41,960 nt of DNA from Dimargaris cristalligena (GCA_003614675.1 ML002323.1:1-41960), one strand, 5' to 3'. Numbered from the stretch's first letter, positions 1,284-19,500 are shown. Numbers and translations: made by a program. The notes: generated from the sequence alone by a model not told the origin.

Positions 1284-2337
1284 TTAATATTGGCTTAGAC
1301 CACCCTTAGCATCAATCACAGCCTGAATTCTACTTGGCATGCTCTCAAAATATAGTGCTGGGTGGGTAGTGTCAATAGCTTTCCATATTGAAGTAATAAT
1401 ATACTTGGCTTTATCCCAGGACCAGTGGCCTGGAAACTTCTTGGCCAGATCTATATTTTTGAACCCAGATGTGCTCAATGAGACTTAAATCAGGACTTTG
1501 AGCAGGCCAATCTAAGACCCCATATTTCTTCTCAGATAGCCATGCTCTCACCATTTTGGTTGTGTGTATTGCTGCATTGTCTTGCTGAAATATCACTGCA
1601 TGGCCTTCCTCAATAAGTTTATTGATCACTGGAGCCATCTGGTCCTTTAATATGTATAAATAGGCACTGCTAACCATTCCTCTTTGCTGGATGGGTGTAG
1701 TGATAGGCCTCTCCCAAAATATAATGTTGGCCTTGCTGAAACTGTGGATTCCCCCCCAGACCATAAGGGATTGGCAGCTAGAACTGAATGTTAGCAGAAG
1801 GTTTTGAGGTGCATATGCCTGACCAGGCCTTTGGAGTACTCTTTAGTTTGCATAGGTACCCCCAATTTGAAATGAACTTTCATCAGAAAAAAAAAAGACA
1901 AATTTCCACTTTTTGATGCTCCAATATTTTCGCTCCTTTGCAAAGTTGAGATTCTTGATCCGGTTAGTGGGTGATATGTATGGCTTCTTTCTTACTACCC
2001 TGGATTCTATATTGGCCTCCTTTAATGCCCTTTGAATTGTCTGCCGTGATATACTCTGACCAGGGAAGACAATGGCCGTAATACCCTGGTTGGTATTAAA
2101 TGGATGGGCTACTGCATATCTGACTAGTTTGTGCTTGGCATAGTTGTTGAGAATCTTGTTACAGCCCCCGCGTTGCTTAGGAGCCTTTGATCCATTATTG
2201 TTACTTGCTTTTATCACCCAGTAAACTGTAGCTCATGAGACACTAAGAATATACATAATCATTGGGACTTGTACATCTTCTTTAAACATATTACAGAGAA
2301 TATCACGCTTCTTAGGGGACAAATGGGTGTATGCCAT
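1284..2337 (-). pseudogene. Tc1 transposase pseudogene
   Basis: ATG at 2337 (MAYTHLSPKKRD...VS*ATVYWVIK, HTH-like), then ISRQTIQRALKE, RKKPYIS, FSDESSF, MVWGGI, FQQDNAAIH and WPAQSPDLSLIEHIW (34 residues between D and E), ending SMPSRIQAVIDAKGG. In-frame stops at 2233-2235 and 1843-1845, and a frameshift near 1465. Confidence 0.93.
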
Positions 2338-6033: not shown

Positions 6034-7661
6034 CTATTCAGCTAAAGTGGGAGTAGTAGCGGTAAGAGTCGCCGACATGGGTGAAGGTGACCATGGTACG
6101 GTATGATGGCTCGGCTCGACCAACCCACCCCTTTCCTCCATCGTCAACAGCGGGGTCGGTGCCGGTGTGACCAGCGCCTTCACCCTCTCCCCAGACCCCC
6201 GCTGACCGAGACGTAGAATCGGACGCGCCGAGGCCAATTCGGAAATAAGGGGTGTGGTCGGCGGCTGCTGATCCAGGACCCCCGGTGGCCGGGGGATGGG
6301 CCCCGATCCGTCCCGGTCCACCCCTTCAGCCACCGAGTCCGATTTTAGAGCCACAGTATCCGCTGACTGTCCTGACGACGGCTCCTGCCGCCAAGTCGAT
6401 CGGAACGACGGGGAGTAAGGGGTAGCGTAATTAGGGTACAGCGAATTCGCCGTATGGGCGGACGTAAGCCGGGCGGGGGTTAAAAAGGATGATGTAGCGT
6501 GAAATGAATTAGGAACAGGCGTAGCAGTAGTCGGAGTCGTTGTTGATAGGGCGGTAGTGGGAGTCATGGGTTCCTGACAATACCGATCTCCACTCAATAA
6601 TGAGGTGAGTTCACCCCCCCTGGAAAGACTATGCCTACTAGAACCACTATTGCGGTGCTGGTGCCCGTAGAGGTCCAAAAGAGTGGGCCGCTTCCCCACC
6701 AATACCGTCTGCAACGAATTACTGCTGCCACTGCTACTACTATTACTACTACTGCTGCTGATATGACTCTGGCCATTATCATGGGAAGATGCGGATACTA
6801 CGTCGGATTGCTGGAATAGCAGCATGGCCTCGGCCGCATTGACCATGGTCGATGGAGCGGGATAATGCGGGTGATTCGAGCCAAGGGTGGTCGAAGCGCA
6901 CCGCTTAAGCCGGGGAGGTTGGGGATCGGTGGCCGATTGTGAAACGGCGGTGAAATTCGGAGGATAACTGAAATACCGGGTTGACAGGCGCTTGGTCGGG
7001 GTTTTAAAGTCCGACCCCGCTGCGGAAGACGATGACGACGACGAGGAGGAGGAGGAAGAGGTAGTGATGGTGGAAGGTAGATGTAGGTTACGGGACGACG
7101 AATGGATATGAATACCGGGCTGTGCACCCGTCATCTCCGGGTAAGTCAAACCCGAACCGGAATCTAGGGATACTAATGATGAAGATGATGAGGACAATGT
7201 CGAAGATTGTAGAGATGTGAAGGGCGGTGGTGGTTGAATAGCCGAACCCTTCCAAACCGACCTGCCTTCGGGAATGCCACACGCCTCCAGATGAGCGGTA
7301 TTTAACCGCTGGCCCACCTCGGGCACGGTGTGGAATGAGATACCCGGAATGGCCTGTTCCAACGAAAGTCGAAGGCGTTTCCGGGGGGTCAGCGATCCAT
7401 CACCGGGCACATGGGCGGAATCGCCTATCGATTCCCGGGAGGTCGACGGGGACACTGATGGATCAGCGCCGATATCCGTAGCTCCAGTATCGTTTTTTTG
7501 AATGAAGAGACGGTGGATCTTAGTGCGTTCGGTTTCGGGGAGCCGGGCGTAAAGGGCGGTGACTTGTTCGAAGGACTTGTCTTGCCAGCCATAATCAACC
7601 TTGAATTTGGCAAAGGAGAGGGTGGCGTGGAGAGTATCGGCAATCTAAATGGCGTTGACAT
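6034..7661 (-). CDS. Uncharacterised Ser/Thr/Pro-rich, probably disordered nuclear protein (~542 aa if the -1 shift at 7493-7499 is corrected)
   Basis: Long open frame 6034-~7640 with no ATG until 7134. The overlapping frame from ATG 7661 (MSTPFRLP...TVSSFKK) has the same S/P-rich composition and joins it across an A7 run. Basic clusters TPRKRLRL, TPTKR and RLKR, poly-Ser tracts, short helix NAAEAMLLF. Confidence 0.7.
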
Positions 7662-9530
7662 GGAAGCATGGGATCGTAGAGGAATGTGAGTGAGATACGC
7701 CACGATATAAAAATTATCCGTATTATTTTTTTAAAAAAACGGGAGTTATGAGCGGTAGAATGGCGGGAAGCGTAGATAGGAGGGGTCTGGCGAACGAGAT
7801 ACTATGGCTAATTAAACAAACCGCTGGTGTGAATCAGAGGTGCAAAGGAAGCAAGTTTGGGATGGGGAAAGCGAGTGAGAGACAACAGAGGCGCAGGGGG
7901 AGACTCCCTCACCGCAACCTTGCCCGCATCCCCCTCTCCCAGTGAGCTCCCCCCGCGCGCGCTGTTGTCGTTGCCCTAATGACAATCCCTCCTAACCCTA
8001 GCTAGCCAGCTTAGTCCCGTTTCCATACACCAATACTTTCTCCTCTTGACGCTACACTGCCCCAATAATGAAGCACTGTTTCAAGCAAGAGTTATTAGAA
8101 ATGAAACAACAGCCCACTACTGCCGATAATATATATATATATCTACTATATATTGATCGAGCCAAGCGACTATAGACAAACAATAGAGCGGATATAACTG
8201 GGAGATGCTGACTGAAAGGCGCCCTAAACGAGCGTTATATTCGCTTCGTCTCTCTGTAACTCAGCCAGCCATATACGTATGTACACCAGTCATTCAGGTC
8301 TTCACACACACTATAGGGAGAAGAGGAGGAAGGAATACCACACACAGACAGATAGACACAGACACATACAGACATAGGCCTAAACGACATTCCTATCTAC
8401 AACCAATGGCTGATGAGCCCCCGACGATTGTCAGTGCGCATACGCCTGATACAGACAACAAACTGCACCTGTGCCCCCCTCCTTCGTTTTTCCTTCGCCT
8501 CCCTCCCTCCCATCCTCTCGCACACTACTAACAGCTTATGTAATATGTGCTACCCCAAAGAGCGGTATAGGTATAGGTAGCGATAACACCCCCCACCCTT
8601 AGCAACTACACTAGTGACCGAGAGTGTGTTTTCAGGACGGCTACGGCGAGCGCATAAATGAAAGGGACCAGTATAATGTGCTGCTGTTATGGCCTCTTAT
8701 CTGCTATATATACATATAACCACAAACAACCTACCTTACGTGCCCGGCGTTTCGAGACTATATATTCTCGGGTGTCTGGAGGTAAAACAAAAATGGTAGT
8801 TGGTAGTCTAGCCGACTTCCGACGGGGTGTATGGCTGCTATGGGCGGTGCAAGTAGTAGTGGTGGTGGTGGCGGTCCGAAAAGGGTCATCGCTCAACATT
8901 ATGTCGGTGAATCGGGTGGTAAAACCAAGGAGGTGGGAGGGGGGTACCAGTTGGCGAAGGAATCGCGGGGTGGGTGTGTGTGTGTGTGGAGGGGGTGTGT
9001 ACAAAGACAGTGTGTGGACCCAAGCAGCGGCCCGAGTGGGGAGGGGCGGGAAGAAAGAAGGAGGTTACGGAAGGGCTACGGCGGTCGGGTAATAAGGAAT
9101 AGGTATATCGCTCTGGGATACACGACGGGTAGCAAAGAAAAGAACAGAGAGACGTGACCACGGATAGTCTCTTATGGGGACAGAGAAACAGCGGTTGGTG
9201 GTATACAATACGTACGTACAAGCAAGTGGACAGTATATATATATATATATAGGTCGGGGAATGCGCCACTGGAGTAGAACAGGTCACTGAATTCAAAGGC
9301 GAATTGGGAAAGAAAGGGAAGGGAAGAAAAGGGAAGGAACTGCGAGTGGATTAGTCGTGTCTGTGGGATAGGGTAGGGTAATAAAAGACCGACGACGGGG
9401 AGAAGAGTTGGGCGGGAAAGAAATATAGCAGTGCCCTCCAATACGCTATAGGCCATAAAAACCCACCAAGCTTCTACTCTATACCATCATATAATAATCA
9501 TCATCAACGGGGTGGGCTAATAATATTCCC

Positions 9531-9614: not shown

Positions 9615-12600
9615 ACCCCGCAACCGTACTATTATACATCGGAGTGACTGCACACTTGTTAAGAGAGTAGACCATTAATCACGAATCACAATCCCCGATT
9701 TTCCTAGAAACAATCCCGCACCCACCATCACTACTACTACAATACTATACTTCACTGGAAGACCTCCTTCTTCCCCATCGGAAGCTTCAGCATGAATATA
9801 TGTATACACTTACCATTTACCCGCAAACCACCACTGGGTGAAGAAGGAATCCCGCCGGGATATTCCCCAGTAGTAGTGGGTGGACGCGGACGGATCAGAC
9901 CCGCTGCTGGTTAAACTAACTAGGCCCAATTATTCACCCTCGGCTAGCCACGTCAGCATCGCGAGAGAGGTATTGGTGGGGACCATCCTTGAATTCAATA
10001 GACGAGTGAGGGTGAAGGAAAGAGAAACAGAGAGGGGTAGGGGAGTGGGACGTCGGAGTTCCGGGGATCCCACCCTCCCCACTTAGGGAGGGCTGCTTGC
10101 TAGGCGGGGCAAGGAAAGTGTCCCCAGAAAAAAGTATACACATGTACAGGAGGAAAAAAAATCCCCGGTGGAATGACTTATGATGCTGACCAGAGTGAGG
10201 GTAAGAAGGGTGGTACAGGTAAGAATGGTAGGCAGGGTGGGTGATGGACCAGTATTAGATTAGAAAAGAAATGCAAGGGAGAGTGAAGGAGTCCTCGAAT
10301 AATACAAAGGAAAGGCCGCAGTGGGGACTCACTTTACGCTTTTGCCTTTTATTTACCAGTCCTATTCGTAGGTGACTAATTATAGAGAACACGGCGGTAA
10401 AGAGCACATCGCGGTATTCGAGTATATATATATGTAATCTAGCACTCATCACCACCGCCGACAATCCCTGACCACCGATAAAACAATGCTGGTTAATTCA
10501 ACTCGCTTATTCTGTTCATTCCGTTGGCCCAAGTGTCCGGTTACCGCGACCCAAAAACACCCTGCTAATATAACGTGAGTTTTTAAGCTGATATAATTTA
10601 ATATAATTCATTAAACACAACCGCCTCCTCCTTTACCCAAATAATGCCCACCTCTACTACAATATAGATACCCATACAAATGAGAGTCACTGGGACTCGC
10701 AGCCTCTAACATTTCCTTGCTTCCATCCTCTCATACACACACACACACACCCTATTGCTTTGTCCATTCTCGAAAATCAATGAGCCACCTGGCCCAGTTA
10801 GCAGGTCCCGGTTCACCGCATACATATATATATATATGTATGCACTAAATTTACACTTCCACATGTCATTATTAATCTTATCCACTCTTAATAATCATGG
10901 GAAACACTGGCCTGTCGCCGTTTGTGTGGGTGTGTACAAATTGGACATGTTGATTGTTTACATTAACCCAACTGGCCAATCAACAACGGGTACTCCAAGG
11001 CTCCTCGGTGGGCGTCGGCCAATAGCTGCCTAATCGGGCATAACTCAATTAAGGAAATAGAGTGAAAGTCAGTCTCGCTCTCCTCTTTTTGTTTTTACAC
11101 ACTTAAAAAGGGCGGGGGATTTCCCTTCCAACTGGTTGGCTGATGGACGCGACGCGACTGTATCTGGGTAAAAAATGTTATGCAGGCAACCAAGAAAATC
11201 CCCCACACTCCAATCATTAGAGAGTGAGAGAAAGAGCCCTTGCATAATTTTAATAACAATGGGAGGAGGAGGACAAACCTACCGGCACGTGAATTTGATA
11301 AATTCCGACCAATCCCTTAACAATCAATGGGGGTTAGTGTAGAAGAAGAGGGGTTGTTGGGCGGCCATATTATCGCTATGTTGCAGCGAGAAGTAGTTTA
11401 GATTTGCTGGGAGAATGGGACCGTGGATTTAAAAATATGCATTATTAGTGGCAGGGGGGGGAGACTGTCAAACAAAAAGAGTTAAAAAAAGTGAAAGCCT
11501 AAAATACCGGCTGACCCAGCCCCACCATAAGTCATTTGATTCTGAAACTAGGGATACTTCCTAAACAAAAGCAACTTCATTAGCATATATCAAGGTCAGT
11601 CAAAGTGTAGAAGATTCCGGCAAGCTGTTCCAACTGTTTATTTTATCAAAAATAGGTATTAATTCCGTTACCAAGAAACTGGTAAAATGAAAGAAGTGCG
11701 TACACGCCACCCAGGGAAAAACGAATGGAATAGGTAACCAATTCGAGTGGTAATCCAGGTTTGGAATACCGTTTAAAGGACGGGGGGTGGGGTGGTGGAG
11801 AGATGCAAAGACAACGAGACAGCAACGATGCAATGGCTCTCCCTTAAATAAAGTGTAGGGGAGCCGTCTAGAGAGCACAAAAGAAAGGGACGGGATGCGA
11901 TACAGTGGAACAAACTCAAAACTAATTGAAATTCCGATTGTGAATGGATGGATTGTAGAACACAACCGCCATAAAACATGTATAAGCGAGAATAATAAAA
12001 TTAAAACTCGGCCCCGTCATGAAGTAGGACAGGTTCAACTGCCAAATAGAAAGGTGTCTAAAGGGGAGTGGATAAAAGAATAACGCAAGAGAAGGGCCAT
12101 AAAGTAGGGTCCAAAAAAATGGTAGGGGCGCAACAGGTCAATATCGTAACGGAATCAACAAAAATATAGATGGGGGAACAGATTGGATAAAAGCAAGCAC
12201 GGAAGCAATGTTAGGGGGAGGGGTTCGCGCACAGCAAGACCATAACTTCCTCCTATAATCATCCAAATTATTAGTACGGGAGGTGTCTAACATAATGGTC
12301 TGGAAAATGGGAACAAGGGGGAAGAGGGAGGGGAGGTCCCGAGGCGTCGAAGGGGAGGGGGAACTGGGGCGAAGCCGATTCGTGAATAATGGCGGGTTGG
12401 GGCGTACTCTTGCTAAGGGAATGCGCTCCCGGAGATTGGAGGGGGGGAGGTCAGATATTGGATCATAAAAATAAACGGATGGCCGCGGGCAGGCGGGCGG
12501 GGGATAATCATGAGGATAGATTGAGTGTGGGGGAGTAAGTGTGTAGCCATAAATCGACCAAAATCAGGGCGAATTGACATGGAAAGGGCAGACACCCAGG

Positions 12601-13363
12601 GGGTAGAGCATACATAAGTTGTGGGGGAGATGGATAAACTTCATAACTGTACCGAACCCGATAATACCACACCGAAAAGTGAACGAGCCGACGAAGAACA
12701 AGAAACCAACAGACGAAGGAGAAAATACCGCTTGGCGAGTGTGTTTGGGGTAGCCCGAAATGAATCACCAAGTAACCACCCTCTGTGTTCTCAAAGGCAA
12801 AGGGAATTAAGGCAACGAGAAACAGGATGGATTAACTGGATAACAACGGGGTTCAGGAATCTCACTCAAGCGCCATGTGTGCAGAAGCGTCGGGTGGGAA
12901 CAAATTGGGATGAAAAGCGAGGGGATGTGCAGATTTGCGGGTGGTCGGACGAATTCGGTGTTGGGGATTAAACGATAAAGCCATCGTTGGATAATTAAAC
13001 GTGGAAGAAACCAGTAAGAATCATAACGGTGGAGGGAGTGTTGGAGTAGGGCATACGTAAGAGGAATAGCGGATTGTCCCGCGAAAGGGAACTGGACATG
13101 TGTAAAAAATATATAGTAAAATGACAAACGATGGCATCCCCTCCATTCAGGGTTATAGTAGGAGGAGTGAACATTTGTAGGTCAAAGGATTAACGATTTC
13201 GAGATTCACGAATCAGTAAAGAGAGGTCACTTTATGATGATATTGGCAATAGGACTCCAGTAAAGAAGGGCACACCAGAATACTAAGGGACAGTTAAAGG
13301 GGGTCCAATAAGAAAGAGGGGGTAGAGCAAAGAAGGGAAATCAACTCAGTTCTAGCATCTGAC

Positions 13364-15010
13364 TTAAAAGCCGTCCATCATAAAGATGCCGGTGGGCGGG
13401 GAGCAGGCCGAGGTGGAGTGCAAAGACAGTGCGCTCAACTTGGCGGACAGATAGGCCGAGTGGGCGGAATTGGCGCCACCCTTGGCCAATTTATTTTGGG
13501 AAGGCATGGAAATAGGCAACTGCTTCTGGTTGATGGGCATGGCCGAGGCGGCGGTGGAGCTGAGAAAGGCGTCATCGAAGGAGAGGTCTTCGAGTTCGTC
13601 GTCATCGTCATCAGCCCAGCTGCAGTAGCGAGCGTAAGAGCTGGAGACGAAGGTCGGGGAAGCGGTGGCGGTCGAAGTGGTGCTAGTTGGGGCAGCCACG
13701 GGAATGGGACGGGTGATGGCCGAAGGGGCAGCGACGTGGGAGACGCTGGGAAGGGTGGGTGAAAAGAGAGTAGAGGTGGATGAACCGATGGAAAAGGACA
13801 GGGGCTCGTCGTCATTTTCATCGTCCTCGTCGGCCCAGTTGAAGGGCATGGTGAAGCGAACAGCCATGGAGGGGACCAGAAGGTGTGAGGGACGGGACGG
13901 CGAGGCAGCCGCCTGTTGGATGGGGATGGCCTGGGGAGCGGGGGTGGAAAACAAGTCAAAGTCGTTAGAAGACTCCGCCGTCTCTTCCTCCTCTGACAGG
14001 TACCAGTCGTCCTCGCTGAGGGGGGTCGAGTCGAAAGAAGGGCGGTAGGGAAGCGGGGCCACTTCCACGGCCGAGGGGGCGGTGAAACTAGAAAGGTAAA
14101 TATTATCGAGGGAGGAGGTCCACTCGGCAAACTCAGATACAGAACAACGAACCATTTCGTGGCAGAACACACGGCGGTGCAGGAAAGAGGCCACTTCTTC
14201 GGGGCAGTTTACGCGGTCGACGAGAAAACGAACTCCGTCACGGACGAAGGCGGCGAAAGACTGAGAGCTAGCCACATCGGGCTCGGACCAGGGGGTAACA
14301 CCGTAAAACACGTTGAGAAAAATAATACCGAGGGCCCAGATATCCGACTTACTGGACGAATAAAAGGTACGTTGGGTACTACGGTTCTCCCGGCTCATGT
14401 AGGGGCGACTACCGCATTCAAATTCATCGGAGCGGTCGCATTCGGTGGCCAGACCAAAGTCGGTTAGCTTAATGCGGTAGTGCTGGCGGGTGATGATGAT
14501 GTTTTCGGGCTTAATGTCACGGTGGTAGACACCTTGGGCGTGGACGTGGGCCACGGCATCAAGCACCTGCTGGAAAATGGACTTGTAGAGGGTAAAACGC
14601 TTCACCTGGTTAGCCCGTGTGTCCTTAGTGGGGTGGACACGGTTCAGGGAGTCGGACGTAATCCACTCATACAGATCTTGCCCATCGGCAAACTCCATAA
14701 CCAGGAAGCGCCAGTCGGCGGTCTCGAAGGCACGGTCAATGGCCACCACGGATTTGTGGTTGCTGACGCGCTGGTGGAGACGAAGCTCCAGGCGCTGCAT
14801 TTCTAGCTGGTCTTCATCAAGGGAAATTTTAGATAGGCATTTAATCGCCTGGACAGCCCGGGTTCGGTTGTTCTGTGCCAGGTACACCACGGCGTACGAG
14901 CCGCTACCAATGACGGACTTGAGGGTGTAACTTACGTTTCCACTTGGGTCGGCAATGATGCTACCAACCTTGAAGGGGATTTCGGAAGAAGAGCCAGCAG
15001 AGAAAGACAT
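13364..15010 (-). CDS. Ser/Thr protein kinase, fungal Ran1/Pat1-Ksp1/Sks1-like family, 548 aa, intronless
   Basis: ATG at 15010 in ACC-ATG context. Motifs GSGSYA, AIKCL, HRDIKPEN, KLTDFGLAT, CGSRPYMSRE (Ran1-family activation segment CGSxxYMSxE) and DIWALG. Acidic, low-complexity C-terminal tail. Confidence 0.92.
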   Translation of the reverse strand: MSFSAGSSSEIPFKVGSIIADPSGNVSYTLKSVIGSGSYAVVYLAQNNRTRAVQAIKCLSKISLDEDQLEMQRLELRLHQRVSNHKSVVAIDRAFETADWRFLVMEFADGQDLYEWITSDSLNRVHPTKDTRANQVKRFTLYKSIFQQVLDAVAHVHAQGVYHRDIKPENIIITRQHYRIKLTDFGLATECDRSDEFECGSRPYMSRENRSTQRTFYSSSKSDIWALGIIFLNVFYGVTPWSEPDVASSQSFAAFVRDGVRFLVDRVNCPEEVASFLHRRVFCHEMVRCSVSEFAEWTSSLDNIYLSSFTAPSAVEVAPLPYRPSFDSTPLSEDDWYLSEEEETAESSNDFDLFSTPAPQAIPIQQAAASPSRPSHLLVPSMAVRFTMPFNWADEDDENDDEPLSFSIGSSTSTLFSPTLPSVSHVAAPSAITRPIPVAAPTSTTSTATASPTFVSSSYARYCSWADDDDDELEDLSFDDAFLSSTAASAMPINQKQLPISMPSQNKLAKGGANSAHSAYLSAKLSALSLHSTSACSPPTGIFMMDGF

Positions 15011-15464
15011 GGTGAAGAAATAAAGCGGTATGAGGGGGGGGGGTGCAAAGGGGAGGGGAGGGGTAAAAAAATGAAGAGTACAATACACACTAACGCGGAA
15101 CAGTGGCCACGAACGGACAGCAAAGCGTGAGGGGCGCGCGACAACTAAACTATGTGAGAGCGTAGGAGTCGGGCGCGAAATAACAATAGTTAAAGAAAAT
15201 GGAGACTGAATAGAATAGGAATAAACTTAGAAAATGGTGGAGCGACGAACGAGGAGTTTCGGGGGATTATTAAGGGGGGAGGGGATAATAAACTCAGTAG
15301 TAAAGTGGGAGTGGAGAGGTGGTGGGTCAGTAGTAGGGGGTCAATATATACTGAGTATTATACAACGAAACTCAACAGGTGGGAAAGGTCACTCTTTGGA
15401 AAGAAGGTATCAAAAGGGGTAAGGTGGGAGATGTTTTACAAGACGAAGAAGGATTAAAGTGTTA

Positions 15465-15476
15465 TTACAAACTCAT
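15465..15476 (-). promoter_or_regulatory. Minimal uORF (ATG AGT TTG TAA, followed by a second TAA) upstream of the kinase
   Basis: One of only two minus-strand ATGs in 15011-16530; A at -3. Confidence 0.55.
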
Positions 15477-15557
15477 TCTGTATCGAAACCAGCGGGGGAC
15501 GAGAGAAGAATGGTAGGGGACGGGAGGATGCAGGATAGAGCTGGGGAAGCGGACGAG

Positions 15558-15566
15558 CTATAGCAT
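15558..15566 (-). promoter_or_regulatory. Minimal uORF (ATG CTA TAG) upstream of the kinase
   Basis: One of only two minus-strand ATGs in 15011-16530; A at -3. Confidence 0.55.
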
Positions 15567-16501
15567 AATTAAGAGTCGGGAAGAAAGGGAGCGAGAGAGA
15601 GTGAAGGGGAGAGACAATAAAGGCTTGAAGGAATATCCAAACCTAGTATGAAGATGCGGAGAGGGGGACTGGCTGTATGCAGTGGAACTTAGGCAAAAAG
15701 AAGGTGGACAGGAAAATTGCGCGGTTAACACAGAAGGGTCTGGAACGGTGCGCGGGGTTGGATATATGCGCGGTCGAGCCACAGTAATAGAGTCTCCTTC
15801 AAATAAAATTTAAAAAAAAATGGATGTGCTAGACAGTGGTAGTAGTGGTGGTGAGATGGACACAGGCCGCTGGTACCACGGAGGGGAGATAGACAGGACA
15901 CTCAACACAGTAACAGTGAGGAAGATGCGAAGGAGAGGAAGGAGCCCAGGTGAGGTCGGCACTTTTAAATAGCGAAGAGGTTGAGAGAGTGAGAGACGTA
16001 GCAGAATAACAGAGAGCTAGAGAGGGGTTGGAGGCCCAACGTGTGCGAGAGAGTAAGGGGACACAACGACGAACAGACCAAAGAAGTGTGAAGAAGTTGC
16101 GACAGGGGCAGCCAAGGCTGGGAGAGAGAGAGTAGGCTCGTCAGTCTTCGGAATGCGGATGGAGAAATATAGAGTGCGTTCAAAAGGCAAGGGAGAGTGG
16201 AGTAACGAAGACTGTGGTGGGTGGATTAATGGAAAATAGAGAGAGAGAGAGTAGAGGAATAATATAAAAAAGTCCTATTATCGAGTAGACGAGGGAGTGG
16301 ATACTGCTAACTAACAGACGCACACTAGAACTATGGGGAGCACAGCTAGTAGAGAAGTAGTTTAGAGTTAAAATAAGAGAATAGAATAGAATAAAATAAG
16401 GAGGGGAAAATAAAGGACAGTTGGTGTTGAAGAACGCAAACGCAAACACGCGAAGTGGGGAGGGCGAGGGTGAACTATCCGAGGTGGGGGAAGACGCCCT
16501 G

Positions 16502-16509
16502 CTTATATA
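16502..16509 (-). promoter_or_regulatory. Candidate TATA box of the kinase gene
   Basis: TATATAAG on the minus strand, where purine/pyrimidine strand skew flips and where the ATG-free, pyrimidine-rich leader begins. Confidence 0.5.
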
Positions 16510-19500
16510 TACCGTTCTGGCCTGTATGCGCATATACCCTCTCCTCTATATATTGTATAGCATATAGTCAACTCTACTCTACTATACTATGTGAGGTGGG
16601 TGGGTTGGGTGACTCTCTCGTTCTCTCCTCTTCCATTCACCACACGTATTCTCCTCCTATTCTAACATCCCACCATCCCCAAAAAAAGTACCATCCGGAT
16701 GGCGGTGGGGCCAGGGCGATCAACGACCATTGGCTAAGGGGATTTCCCGGCAAGTGACTAATCCGGCCTGATTATGACACACCGCGCCTCTCCCCCACCC
16801 CATCCCGTCCCGTCCCATCCCATCCCCCCTCCTCCTCTTCCTTCTTCTTTGCCCAAATGGGCTCTACTGGCCCAACCCTCTCCCTCACTCTATTATTATT
16901 ACTACTACTACTAGGCTGTACTGTAAACAATGGGGGCGAATCCCCTCCCCCCCACCTCACCCCTATTTTCTGGCTTGGGCCTGTTCCCCTCCTCTTCTAC
17001 ACATACACACGCCTCTCCCTGGGCCCGTTTTGCCACGTACTAAAAATACTAAGAGCCCTTCCCCCCCTACTCTCCACCTTTTCTCTTTATTCGCCCTGCA
17101 GTATTCAGGCATAGTGCCTACATGACCTACCCATTATATTCTATTACACGCGCCCCGGTAGTACTAGGAAGCCAGCTGGCTATTCAAAGCCGACGACGGT
17201 CGTTTCTTCCCTTGAAATTATAATAAAAATAATCTTATCACCATCTGGGCTTTAGCCTAAAATGGGCAAACCCCCAAAATTCATCCGCGTGACTAAGCAA
17301 GCCGTCTACGAACTAAAGGCTTACCGCACGTTAACTATACGATTCCTTCACTATATTATACACACATAAACTACAGTCCCGTCGGTAGCTTAGCCATCCA
17401 GGGTAAACAAACCCATGCTACGGCAAACATGGTGGTTTCAGCTGGGAGGTAGAGTGGTGGTGGGTGAGTGAGTGAGTGAGAGTGCATTAAACCTCCGCAC
17501 AAAATATTATGCCTCAGACTCACCCTTCGCTGTCATCATCATCACACCATATTTGCCATGCTCAGCTATGAGAGGAGAGATCCGGTTCCCCCGTCTAAAC
17601 TGGGCAACCACAATATAAGGCACCTCCTATAGGTCTGGCGATGCTGATCCAACTTTGAGATACAACGACATCGACCTGTTCGCCTATTTACTACTTACCG
17701 CTAGACCATTTAGATAGATGGGCTGACGAGGAAGCTATCCCTATAGCGTGTATACGAAATACGGGAAGGGAGCGGGGTATAAGCTAATGACACGGCTATT
17801 TCCTGCCCTGTAATCACCGCCGCCATTTACTCCACATCTACCCTATCCGCTCGGCACTCCCTTCCCGAACGCACCAATCCGAGCTTCGCTCATCTCGTGG
17901 TGCTCGATGGCCACTACTATCTCATGATTATAATAGTATCACTCCACCAACCAGCCGGACTCGCAATCACAGGAACGTTGCCCTCCCTCCAGCTTGGCAC
18001 GGTTATTTGACTCATTAGCATTATCGCCATCACTACTAATGGTTAATTGTGCGATTGTTGTTAGTCACCACGCCATCAGACAACTCTGCTAGTGGTTATA
18101 AGGGGATATCGGGTTGCCGTTGGTCGCGCGGCCCATACCCGATTTTATCTCAGCCTTCTCACTTAGCGTGAATAAATCGATAAAAAAAGAGCCCTCGTAT
18201 TTCGGAATACTTATTCCAAGGGCGGTGTAGACTTACTTGCCGCGCGTAGTTATGCTTTTATTATTAAAAAAGAGGAAAGGTCACATTAAGGGAAGAGCGG
18301 TGGTTGGGTCACTTACACCAGCCACGGCTTAATCCACCCCACCTCTACTGCGGCCAGAGTAAAAGGGCTGGCTTCAGTAATGATTAATAATAGTAATAGC
18401 GTTGAGAGAGGCCTCCCCCAGACGAGGGTTTTTTTTACGTGTACCTTTTTCATCTTCCCCTTACTTTTCACCGACTGGTTAGCCATCCGTAGTCGATACG
18501 TGGAAGGCGTTGGTGGATGAAGGGGCCACACACACACACCATAGAGCAGCAGGTATATTTAAGCGGTTCTAATTGTATAGGTAAGGAAATGCCTACACAT
18601 AAAAGATTATTCTAGAACTACGCTACATCATCATCTAGTAACAACCATAATGTGGTTCGATGGTCCAAGACTTGTAGGACGAAGATGATATAGAACAACC
18701 ACCAACCAGCTGACCGCCGATCGAGTGTAAAGTCAAACTTGACCACTCCAAGGCACCAGAGGACAATCCCAAGGAATGTCACGGTTGATGAGTGGCTGAA
18801 TCCTACAGTAGAGTAGAGGTCCTGCGGGCGCAGTTTGGCTGGAAGTGACTTTGAAACCCGGGGTTTCGGATACCCTGTATTCTATTCTATTCTATTCTAT
18901 TATTATTTTATTTTAATTGGGGGGAGGGGTGCCCTCCCGATGATGCGACGATAATGGATATACTCCGCAACCATTCTCGAGCCATGTTTACCCTCTACGA
19001 CCATATTATTGACTCCGTTTCTACATGGCCGAGCCCTTATCGCATAGCAATGTTTACGTGAGAGCCGACAGCATTGGTATTGTTTCACCTTGGGGACTAA
19101 AGGCAAGCCCACCCTACCGCTCCTCTCTCCATGAGTGGATTTCGGTTGTCGACAATTGGTCAATACCACCACCACTACTTACCATCGTCTCTCAGCCCCC
19201 CCCCTTCCTGTATGTAAGCTGATTATCGTTTCCCCCCTCGCTTATCTAACCCCATTTGGGCAAGGCCCTTTCTCCTCTCGGCCCATCGTTGCTGCCATGT
19301 CCTCCCCCTCTTTTAGGCCGCCCGCCCCTCCCTCCTCTTCCTCCAATCTCTTTAGTCCCGAATCAAGTATATTCCTAGAATCAACCAGCTGGTCCCAATA
19401 GGCTTTACCTACTATACCCCTAGGGTACCAAACTACCGAATCCATATCATATTGCCATACCCCGGCTGCGTAATGTTTATCTTGGGCCAACGAAAATCCC

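Follow-up and report, generated by a model that had tools for sequence, protein, structure and literature searches.

The window analysed here is a stretch of 41,960 nucleotides (nt) from Dimargaris cristalligena (GCA_003614675.1 ML002323.1:1-41960), whose minus strand carries a single-exon gene for a serine/threonine protein kinase, tentatively Ran1/Ksp1-like. In front of this gene lies a stretch of 1.5 kb that has been almost purged of ATG on the sense strand, and the two ATGs that survive in it each open an upstream open reading frame (uORF) of only two or three codons. Judging from the sequence and from its counterparts in related fungi, we consider it probable that these two elements form a functional and conserved uORF pair on a long, scanned leader, and that they place the kinase under a control of the reinitiation type. 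The features concerned are listed below, with positions counted from the first letter of the window; published work is cited throughout for the particular passages drawn upon.

13364..15010, minus strand: single-exon Ser/Thr protein kinase gene, 548 amino acids plus stop, with the start context CACC ATG T.
15011..16530, minus strand: ATG-purged, CU-rich and weakly folding stretch, the predicted 5' leader according to shuffles, flank controls and folding.
15011..15461, minus strand: ATG-free spacer of 451 nt between uORF2 and the kinase start, offering room to regain the initiator tRNA complex.
15462..15476, minus strand: uORF2, ATG AGT TTG TAA TAA (Met-Ser-Leu-stop-stop), with A at -3; its ATG lies 466 nt ahead of the kinase start.
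15480..15487, minus strand: TTCGATAC box just 5' of uORF2, recognized by eye and tentatively likened to an ascomycete TTCGAATAC box.
15477..15557, minus strand: spacer of 81 nt from the uORF1 stop to the uORF2 ATG (90 nt from ATG to ATG).
15558..15566, minus strand: uORF1, ATG CTA TAG (Met-Leu-stop), with A at -3; its ATG lies 556 nt ahead of the kinase start.
16502..16509, minus strand: TATA-like box TATATAAG, placed by motif position and a flip in composition, at the upstream edge of the ATG-free zone.

The kinase domain (Pkinase of Pfam, E 2.5e-46) occupies residues 28-248 of the predicted protein. Its top relatives are hypothetical proteins of Tieghemiomyces (54% identity), Dimargaris (52%) and Dispira (49%), matched over 78-100% of the length and followed by proteins of Kickxellales, Harpellales and Mortierellomycota, so that the kinase by itself assigns the window to a Dimargaritales-like fungus. 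Because both the N- and the C-terminus align with three Dimargaritales proteins, the ATG at 15010 can be taken as the real start of a gene without introns, and a hidden upstream coding exon is ruled out by the alignment of the N-terminus with these three orthologues. As for the name, the closest solved structures in a search of the PDB were the kinases MELK, MARK, CIPK24 and CaMK1, and the cluster names together with this search yielded only generic or CAMK-like labels, one relative being named CAMK-unique. The source name 'ksp1' belongs to 4 among the 120 matches listed for an ascomycete locus (L065, see below), and 'negative regulator of sexual conjugation and meiosis' to 1 among those 120 and to 2 among the 120 listed long basidiomycete relatives of the window kinase. 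In the kinome table of Aspergillus nidulans, An-Ksp1 and An-Ran1 are both filed under Other/RAN (PMC3591445), and the label 'Ran1/Ksp1-like' rests only on these source names of relatives and on that table.

Between 16530 and 15011 on the minus strand (1520 nt) we found exactly two ATGs, at 15566 and 15476, in a sense strand composed of 70.2% pyrimidine and 12.8% G; both the count and the pyrimidine richness agree with a preliminary description of this DNA. A first-order Markov model of the leader predicts 9.9 ATGs, giving an observed-to-expected ratio (O/E) of 0.20, the lowest among all 64 triplets. The dinucleotide-preserving shuffling which the same description had proposed as a test of the depletion bore it out: the mean over 5000 shuffles was 9.87 ATGs (standard deviation 2.70), and two or fewer were met in 9/5000, a figure which, like all P values here, is nominal and post hoc, for the limits of the leader were picked after the ATG-free run had been seen. 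This run (16533-15566, 967 nt) is the longest of the window on either strand, the runner-up being 557 nt, and in a sliding scan of both strands at 1520 nt the leader is the lowest point of the window in ATG relative to expectation. On the same strand, the 3' flank (11000-13363), which is equally pyrimidine-rich, holds 32 ATGs against 30.8 expected (O/E 1.04), and the upstream flank (16531-18050) holds 35 against 32.9 (O/E 1.06); the antisense strand of the leader has 21 against 25.1 (O/E 0.84), and the sibling words on its sense strand were observed and expected at 24 and 23.1 for TTG, 26 and 24.6 for CTG, and 16 and 10.4 for GTG. Only the sense strand is depleted, and only 5' of the gene, and composition does not explain it. 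Depletion of upstream AUG is general in 5' untranslated regions (UTRs), AUG having the lowest 5'/3' ratio of all triplets (PMC7889888), and the leaders of Saccharomyces cerevisiae have a mean of 84 nt, with longer, AUG-rich leaders in Cryptococcus and Neurospora (PMC7049704).

At its upstream edge the leader of the window shows a change of composition. The pyrimidine fraction of the sense strand rises from 0.34 to 0.70 at 16500, next to the TATA-like box, which upholds the skew flip noted earlier for the start of the leader, and the nearest ATG above the leader stands at 16533, from where ATGs are dense again. The transcript most likely starts just downstream of the box, at roughly 16480-16440, which would make the leader about 1.45 kb long. 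Folding is weak along it, with a mean energy per 120 nt of -12.9 kcal/mol, to be compared with -28.4 in the coding sequence (CDS), -29.8 upstream of the TATA-like box and -18.5 in the 3' flank. Since introns, as well as DNA upstream of the transcription start, would escape ATG purging, the whole stretch probably belongs to a mature, scanned mRNA. No canonical splice donor (GTAAGT, GTATGT, GTGAGT) occurs within the leader, only weak donor-like sites at 16325, 16323 (GTGCGT), 16315 (GTTAGT), 16311, 15094 and 15090, and on this ground a UTR intron was set aside; the only conceivable intron that would excise both uORFs, 1.16-1.18 kb long, would have to combine a weak donor with branch-like and acceptor-like sites. 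Repeats were likewise discarded as the cause of the missing ATGs, there being only five tiny tandem arrays and one dispersed match of 31 nt in the window. An open frame of 117 codons (16533-16180) has no Pfam match, and its ATG sits upstream of the TATA-like box. No Rfam family reached its gathering score anywhere in the window, leader included. About 300 nt upstream of the box, a run of G tracts (GGGA/GGGG units, some 40 nt) stands on the sense strand at minus 16790-16830, a possible G-quadruplex-forming promoter element. The preliminary description had read this region as a long, scanned leader in which ATG is selected against. This reading agrees well with a depletion found on a single strand and a single side of the gene, with the weak folding, with the lack of a good splice donor and with the homologous loci described below.

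The two remaining ATGs are out of the ordinary in another respect. In the shuffled leaders the open frame following an ATG has a median of 24 codons and is of three codons or fewer in only 9.1%; because stops are rare in this composition, the fact that both surviving ATGs close at once is a second oddity. Both frames (Met-Leu-stop and Met-Ser-Leu-stop-stop) and the A at -3 of each are as had been claimed. Of the 12 nt after the uORF1 stop, CTCGTCCGCTTC, 8 are G or C. Downstream of its stop, uORF1 thus lies next to GC-rich sequence, and uORF2 next to AT-rich sequence.

In an attempt to learn whether such an arrangement is found elsewhere, we turned to metagenome loci encoding relatives of the kinase, of which 80 were kept out of 576 confirmed (29-42% identity). 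The start was set at the first in-frame ATG that follows a stop in the same frame, which was definable in 72/80 loci, and the other 8 were dropped. Over the 72 loci, the sense-strand O/E of ATG is 0.20, 0.22 and 0.39 in the three successive 100-nt bins nearest the start and 0.7-1.06 further out, the antisense strand showing 0.87-1.19 overall and 1.04-1.08 in those three bins. An A-run, looked for as a sign of transcript origin (poly(A)), ends 1 of the 45 metagenome contigs inspected. A FastTree tree of 104 rows, in which the window kinase is joined by the 72 loci and by 31 named proteins picked by hand, gives three kinase groups. The first unites the window with Dimargaritales (support 99), Kickxellales/Harpellales, Mortierellomycota and basidiomycetes (support 100) and contains no metagenome locus; the second holds the ascomycetes, namely Ogataea and Pezizomycotina, with 19 loci; Basidiobolus and a second Coemansia kinase fall into the third, along with 49 loci. 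The L065 protein is 92% identical to a Hyaloscypha protein and shares 62% identity over its full length with the best Pezizomycotina match of the window kinase, from Ophiocordyceps.

A counterpart to the leader of the window appears in the ascomycete group. Its 19 loci, taken up to 1 kb upstream, hold 37 ATGs against 114.4 expected, and 309 against 299.5 on the antisense strand. The pair counts refer to the 14 loci whose upstream sequence reaches 520 nt or more. Among these, two uORFs of no more than five codons lie at -520 to -250 in 10, at least one ATG lies there in all 14, and an ATG within 250 nt of the start occurs in none (0/14). The first uORF, of 2-4 codons, reads ML (3 loci), MLL, MLS, MLA, MST, MSL, MPS or MIRL, mostly in the form ATG ... 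TTA TAA CGA followed by T-rich sequence, and includes Leu in 7/10 paired loci (9/12 with L057 and L059); the second reads MSL in 6/10 (ATG AGC/AGT CTC TGA) and MSLG, MSC, MTLGY or MTTRH in the rest. From ATG to ATG the pair is 106-136 nt apart in the ascomycete loci and 90 nt in the window. The ML-stop of the window at -556 and its MSL-stop at -466 are the modal ascomycete forms in the same order, and the MSL of the window (AGT TTG TAA) has been described as differing from its ascomycete equivalent in the codons for Ser, Leu and stop. Among 59,130 ATGs of shuffled leaders, ML-stop has a frequency of 0.0050 and MSL-stop of 0.00079, with a product of 3.9e-6, and the chance of a pair match with the full observed ascomycete peptide sets is 8e-6; in the real window, whose two strands hold 1355 ATGs, ML-stop is seen twice and MSL-stop a single time. 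Because order, size and modal peptide are kept in Pezizomycotina relatives, the pair would be an old functional module rather than a leftover. The conservation of the uORFs in related leaders, which the preliminary description had named as a check, thus came out in two halves: an ordered pair of 2-5-codon uORFs is present in the Pezizomycotina relatives, and nucleotide homology was not detected.

Several further observations were made in these relatives. The TTCGAATAC box 5' of uORF2 is clear, by eye and with no statistics attached, in 3-4/10 ascomycete loci. Four loci (L062:2221, L066:643, L065:2135 and L075:2070) have a distal third uORF of 11-12 codons, about 729-868 nt upstream, whose peptide is kept within subclades (MFSTTLRQVFQ/MFSSTIRQVFQ in one, MISKQVTEIVLR/MISTRQSGTVL in the other) and which has no counterpart in the window. 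A hairpin of 4-5 bp is predicted about 30-45 nt after uORF1 in L035, L062, L063, L065, L066, L068, L071, L075 and L079, with stems that differ yet remain complementary (GGAC/GTCC, GAGCC/GGCTC, GGGCC/GGCTC, GACC/GGTC, GAGC/GCTC; single-sequence folds, in a register that is not alignable), and has no clear equivalent in the window. Single-sequence folds around the uORFs of the window and of ten ascomycete modules gave z from -0.90 to +1.28, none of them significant. Within the third group, loci whose proteins start M[LIY]PTPPASP (e.g., L008, L019, L021, L022, L028, L038, L041, L042 and L045) have leaders free of ATG over at least 250-450 nt, and in many of them a lone tiny uORF precedes the start by 49-107 nt (MF, MSC, MLV, MI, MIVL, MIC and others).

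The transcription start, the translation of the uORFs, reinitiation as the mechanism and the direction of regulation are matters that we infer, along the following lines. Transcription would begin just downstream of the TATA-like box and produce a leader of about 1.45 kb, scanned from the cap; in this CU-rich, G-poor and nearly unstructured RNA, 43S complexes would travel about 0.9 kb without meeting an AUG. The first they met would be that of uORF1, where termination after two codons would leave the 40S subunit on the mRNA and allow scanning to resume. By 81 nt further on, those subunits already reloaded with the ternary complex would translate uORF2, and the following 451 AUG-free nt would permit reloading ahead of the kinase AUG, which lies in a good context. 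Short uORFs do favour resumed scanning after termination (PMC5972666; PMC7498311). Because such tiny uORFs would leave the 40S subunit on the mRNA, kinase synthesis might be set by how quickly the eIF2 ternary complex is regained and by how permissive the uORFs are. Within this scheme, the leading but still tentative idea is a GCN4-like rise of the kinase upon eIF2-alpha phosphorylation or starvation, which hinges on uORF2 being poorly permissive, a property for which the sequence gives no rule.

Comparison with known systems helps to delimit what such a control would be. Like GCN4 of S. cerevisiae and its fungal homologues, the window combines a long leader, serial uORFs of 2-3 codons, an AUG-free spacer and a putative link to nutrient signalling; unlike GCN4, it has two uORFs instead of four, a long last spacer of 451 nt, and a kinase in place of a bZIP factor. 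The GCN4-style control proposed in the preliminary description stands as far as two short uORFs in series, 90 nt apart, are concerned, and fails on the AU-rich 3' context of uORF1. In mammals, ATF4 follows a two-uORF logic with a first uORF of three codons, which recalls the window. The layout on which the ATF4-style control proposed alongside would depend is nevertheless absent: in ATF4 the inhibitory uORF overlaps the CDS out of frame, whereas no uORF overlaps it here and uORF2 stops at 15462, leaving 451 nt to the kinase ATG. A precedent is offered by hri2, itself a protein kinase gene, and fil1 of Schizosaccharomyces pombe, in which dipeptide uORFs act as positive or negative elements of Gcn2-dependent control (PMC7498311). 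In hri2 a dipeptide uORF (MI) is positive, a later uORF is negative and codon identity matters, but there are four uORFs with other sequences, and conservation across phyla is not described in the passages cited (PMC7498311). Neither ksp1 nor ran1 is mentioned in the main-text passages or in one supplementary file of that work (PMC7498311).

Long leaders and conserved uORFs are each known from other genes as well. UME6 and WOR1 are fungal regulators with long 5' UTRs. The same is true of EFG1 of Candida albicans, a regulatory gene with a leader of a kilobase or more that affects translation, although leaders of this type are not described in the passages cited as AUG-purged or as bearing a conserved minimal uORF pair (PMC6034079). 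The arginine attenuator peptide of arg-2/CPA1 and the conserved peptide uORFs of plants (PMC2075485) resemble the present pair in being conserved over large distances, but their peptides measure at least about 20 residues and act in the exit tunnel, whereas the module considered here has uORFs of 2-5 codons (2 and 3 in the window). The literature searched contained no description of uORFs for kinases of the Ksp1 or Ran1 type, though other papers or supplements may hold one. Translational control by uORFs is itself textbook knowledge, and a uORF pair on this kinase would be a newly described instance of it.

Obviously, a number of points weigh against the conserved reinitiation module that we favour. 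The post hoc choice of the leader limits has been stated above. Nor does the tree settle the orthology of the window kinase with the ascomycete one, since the three kinase groups form a polytomy, and the third clade of 49 loci follows another pattern, some of its members having just one tiny uORF, placed 49-107 nt ahead of the start. At the level of nucleotides, an nhmmer profile of the ten ascomycete modules did not find the leader (its best match in the window lies elsewhere, with E 1.5), blastn-short of these modules against the window returned CT runs only, and a MAFFT alignment of the modules misplaced the window sequence. A pyrimidine stands at -3 in 19/20 ascomycete uAUGs as against A in both uAUGs of the window, the ascomycete main AUGs having a purine at -3 in 9/10 and G at +4 in 10/10, and the uORF peptides vary among the ascomycetes themselves. 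The likeness is therefore one of architecture and peptide, and it compares a single zoopagomycete leader with an ascomycete set. As regards mechanism, uORF1 of GCN4 needs an AU-rich 3' context (PMC5972666) where that of the window is GC-rich, and nothing in the window takes the place of the CDS-overlapping inhibitory uORF of ATF4.

Other explanations must be weighed against the same data. A downstream transcription start or a UTR intron could give rise to a short mRNA free of uORFs, so that the choice between isoforms would matter and reinitiation would be secondary. The weak donors GTTAGT at 16315 and GTGCGT at 16323, with branch- and acceptor-like sites, could define a uORF-removing intron, and switching between long- and short-leader isoforms has been reported for fungal developmental regulators (Histoplasma preprint 10.64898/2026.08.26.747414). 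We regard this as improbable, however: the depletion spans the whole 1.5 kb, whereas introns and DNA lying above the main start should not show it; the leader has no canonical donor; and the retention of the pair in relatives implies that it is used. A sensor of codons or amino acids would operate differently, the pausing of ribosomes on Leu codons at scarce leucyl-tRNA, or an effect of peptide or tRNA at termination, setting the passage of 40S subunits. It is true that both uORFs of the window end in Leu-stop, that most ascomycete forms contain Leu, that MSL is common to the window and six ascomycete loci despite the reported codon differences, and that the identity of the last codon alters the reinitiation potential of dipeptide uORFs (PMC7498311). 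Yet there are ascomycete variants which lack Leu or are extended (MST, MPS, MSC, MTTRH), the nucleotides of uORF1 (TTA TAA CGA) seem better conserved than its peptide, and a peptide of 2-3 residues is too short to reach the exit tunnel, all of which makes such a sensor rather unlikely.

The sceptical view, that the missing ATGs are an accident of CT-rich composition in what is mostly promoter or spacer in front of a short UTR, can draw upon the boundaries chosen post hoc, upon the lack of nucleotide homology to the ascomycete modules with nhmmer and blastn-short, and upon the fact that CT-rich tracts are common near fungal promoters. It is hard to reconcile with the controls matched for composition (9/5000 shuffles, and an O/E of 1.04 in the CT-rich 3' flank), with a chance of the peptide match of about 4-8e-6, and with the same sense-only depletion in 72 homologous loci, and we hold it to be more unlikely still. 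Least probable of all is a separate non-coding transcript or a platform for cap-independent entry, with no scanning from a distant cap; an unstructured and pyrimidine-rich leader would suit such a platform, but selection on AUG along the whole stretch is a signature of linear scanning, which neither internal entry nor a separate RNA needs, and there is no match to an Rfam family. It is the reinitiation-type control by a conserved uORF pair that in our judgement best accommodates these observations.

The remainder of the window is gene-poor. When 18 open frames of at least 120 codons were scanned, Pfam gathering scores were attained, apart from the kinase, by two only. These two make up what is left of a Tc1/mariner-type transposase (1411-2232, minus strand), with HTH_Tnp_Tc3_2 (E 1.4e-13) and DDE_3 (E 2.1e-7) in adjacent frames split by a stop. 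Beyond the kinase stop the minus strand stays pyrimidine-rich for another 2.4 kb, over 11000-13363 (the plus strand being 57-67% purine), at normal ATG density; this may reflect a long 3' UTR or a wider strand asymmetry, and the open frames in it have no Pfam match. Among the minus-strand open frames at 6034-7644 and 8899-9456, one of 536 codons shows a weak Whi5 motif that falls below threshold (E 0.0018; 18.3 bits, where 25 are required); as there is no ATG at the head of this frame, an upstream exon is likely, and the second longest ATG-free run of the strand (557 nt) lies upstream of it.

If the conserved module is real, its meaning would reach beyond this one gene. Conservation of a uORF from one fungal phylum to another is known in very few cases, which concern metabolic regulators such as GCN4/cpc-1 and arg-2/CPA1; a signalling kinase of the Ran1/Ksp1 kind would join this short list, with its dosage set at translation, possibly by the eIF2 pathway reading the amino-acid supply. 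The relatives named in model ascomycetes are An-Ksp1 of A. nidulans (AN2265) and stk-39 of Neurospora crassa (NCU06230), beside which stands a second RAN-family gene, stk-17/AN4935; either of the two could be the bearer of the module (PMC3591445 for the names). More generally, ATG depletion combined with tiny uORFs can flag long leaders in genomes for which there are no RNA data. A bolder proposition, advanced here only as a possibility with the odds against it, is that the ML-stop/MSL-stop switch predates the split between zoopagomycetes and dikaryans, has been kept on RAN/Ksp1-like kinases ever since, and ties their synthesis to ternary-complex or amino-acid (possibly leucine) status. Were so old a switch to be true, the kinase would stand beside GCN4/cpc-1 as an output of the fungal response to starvation that is controlled at translation.

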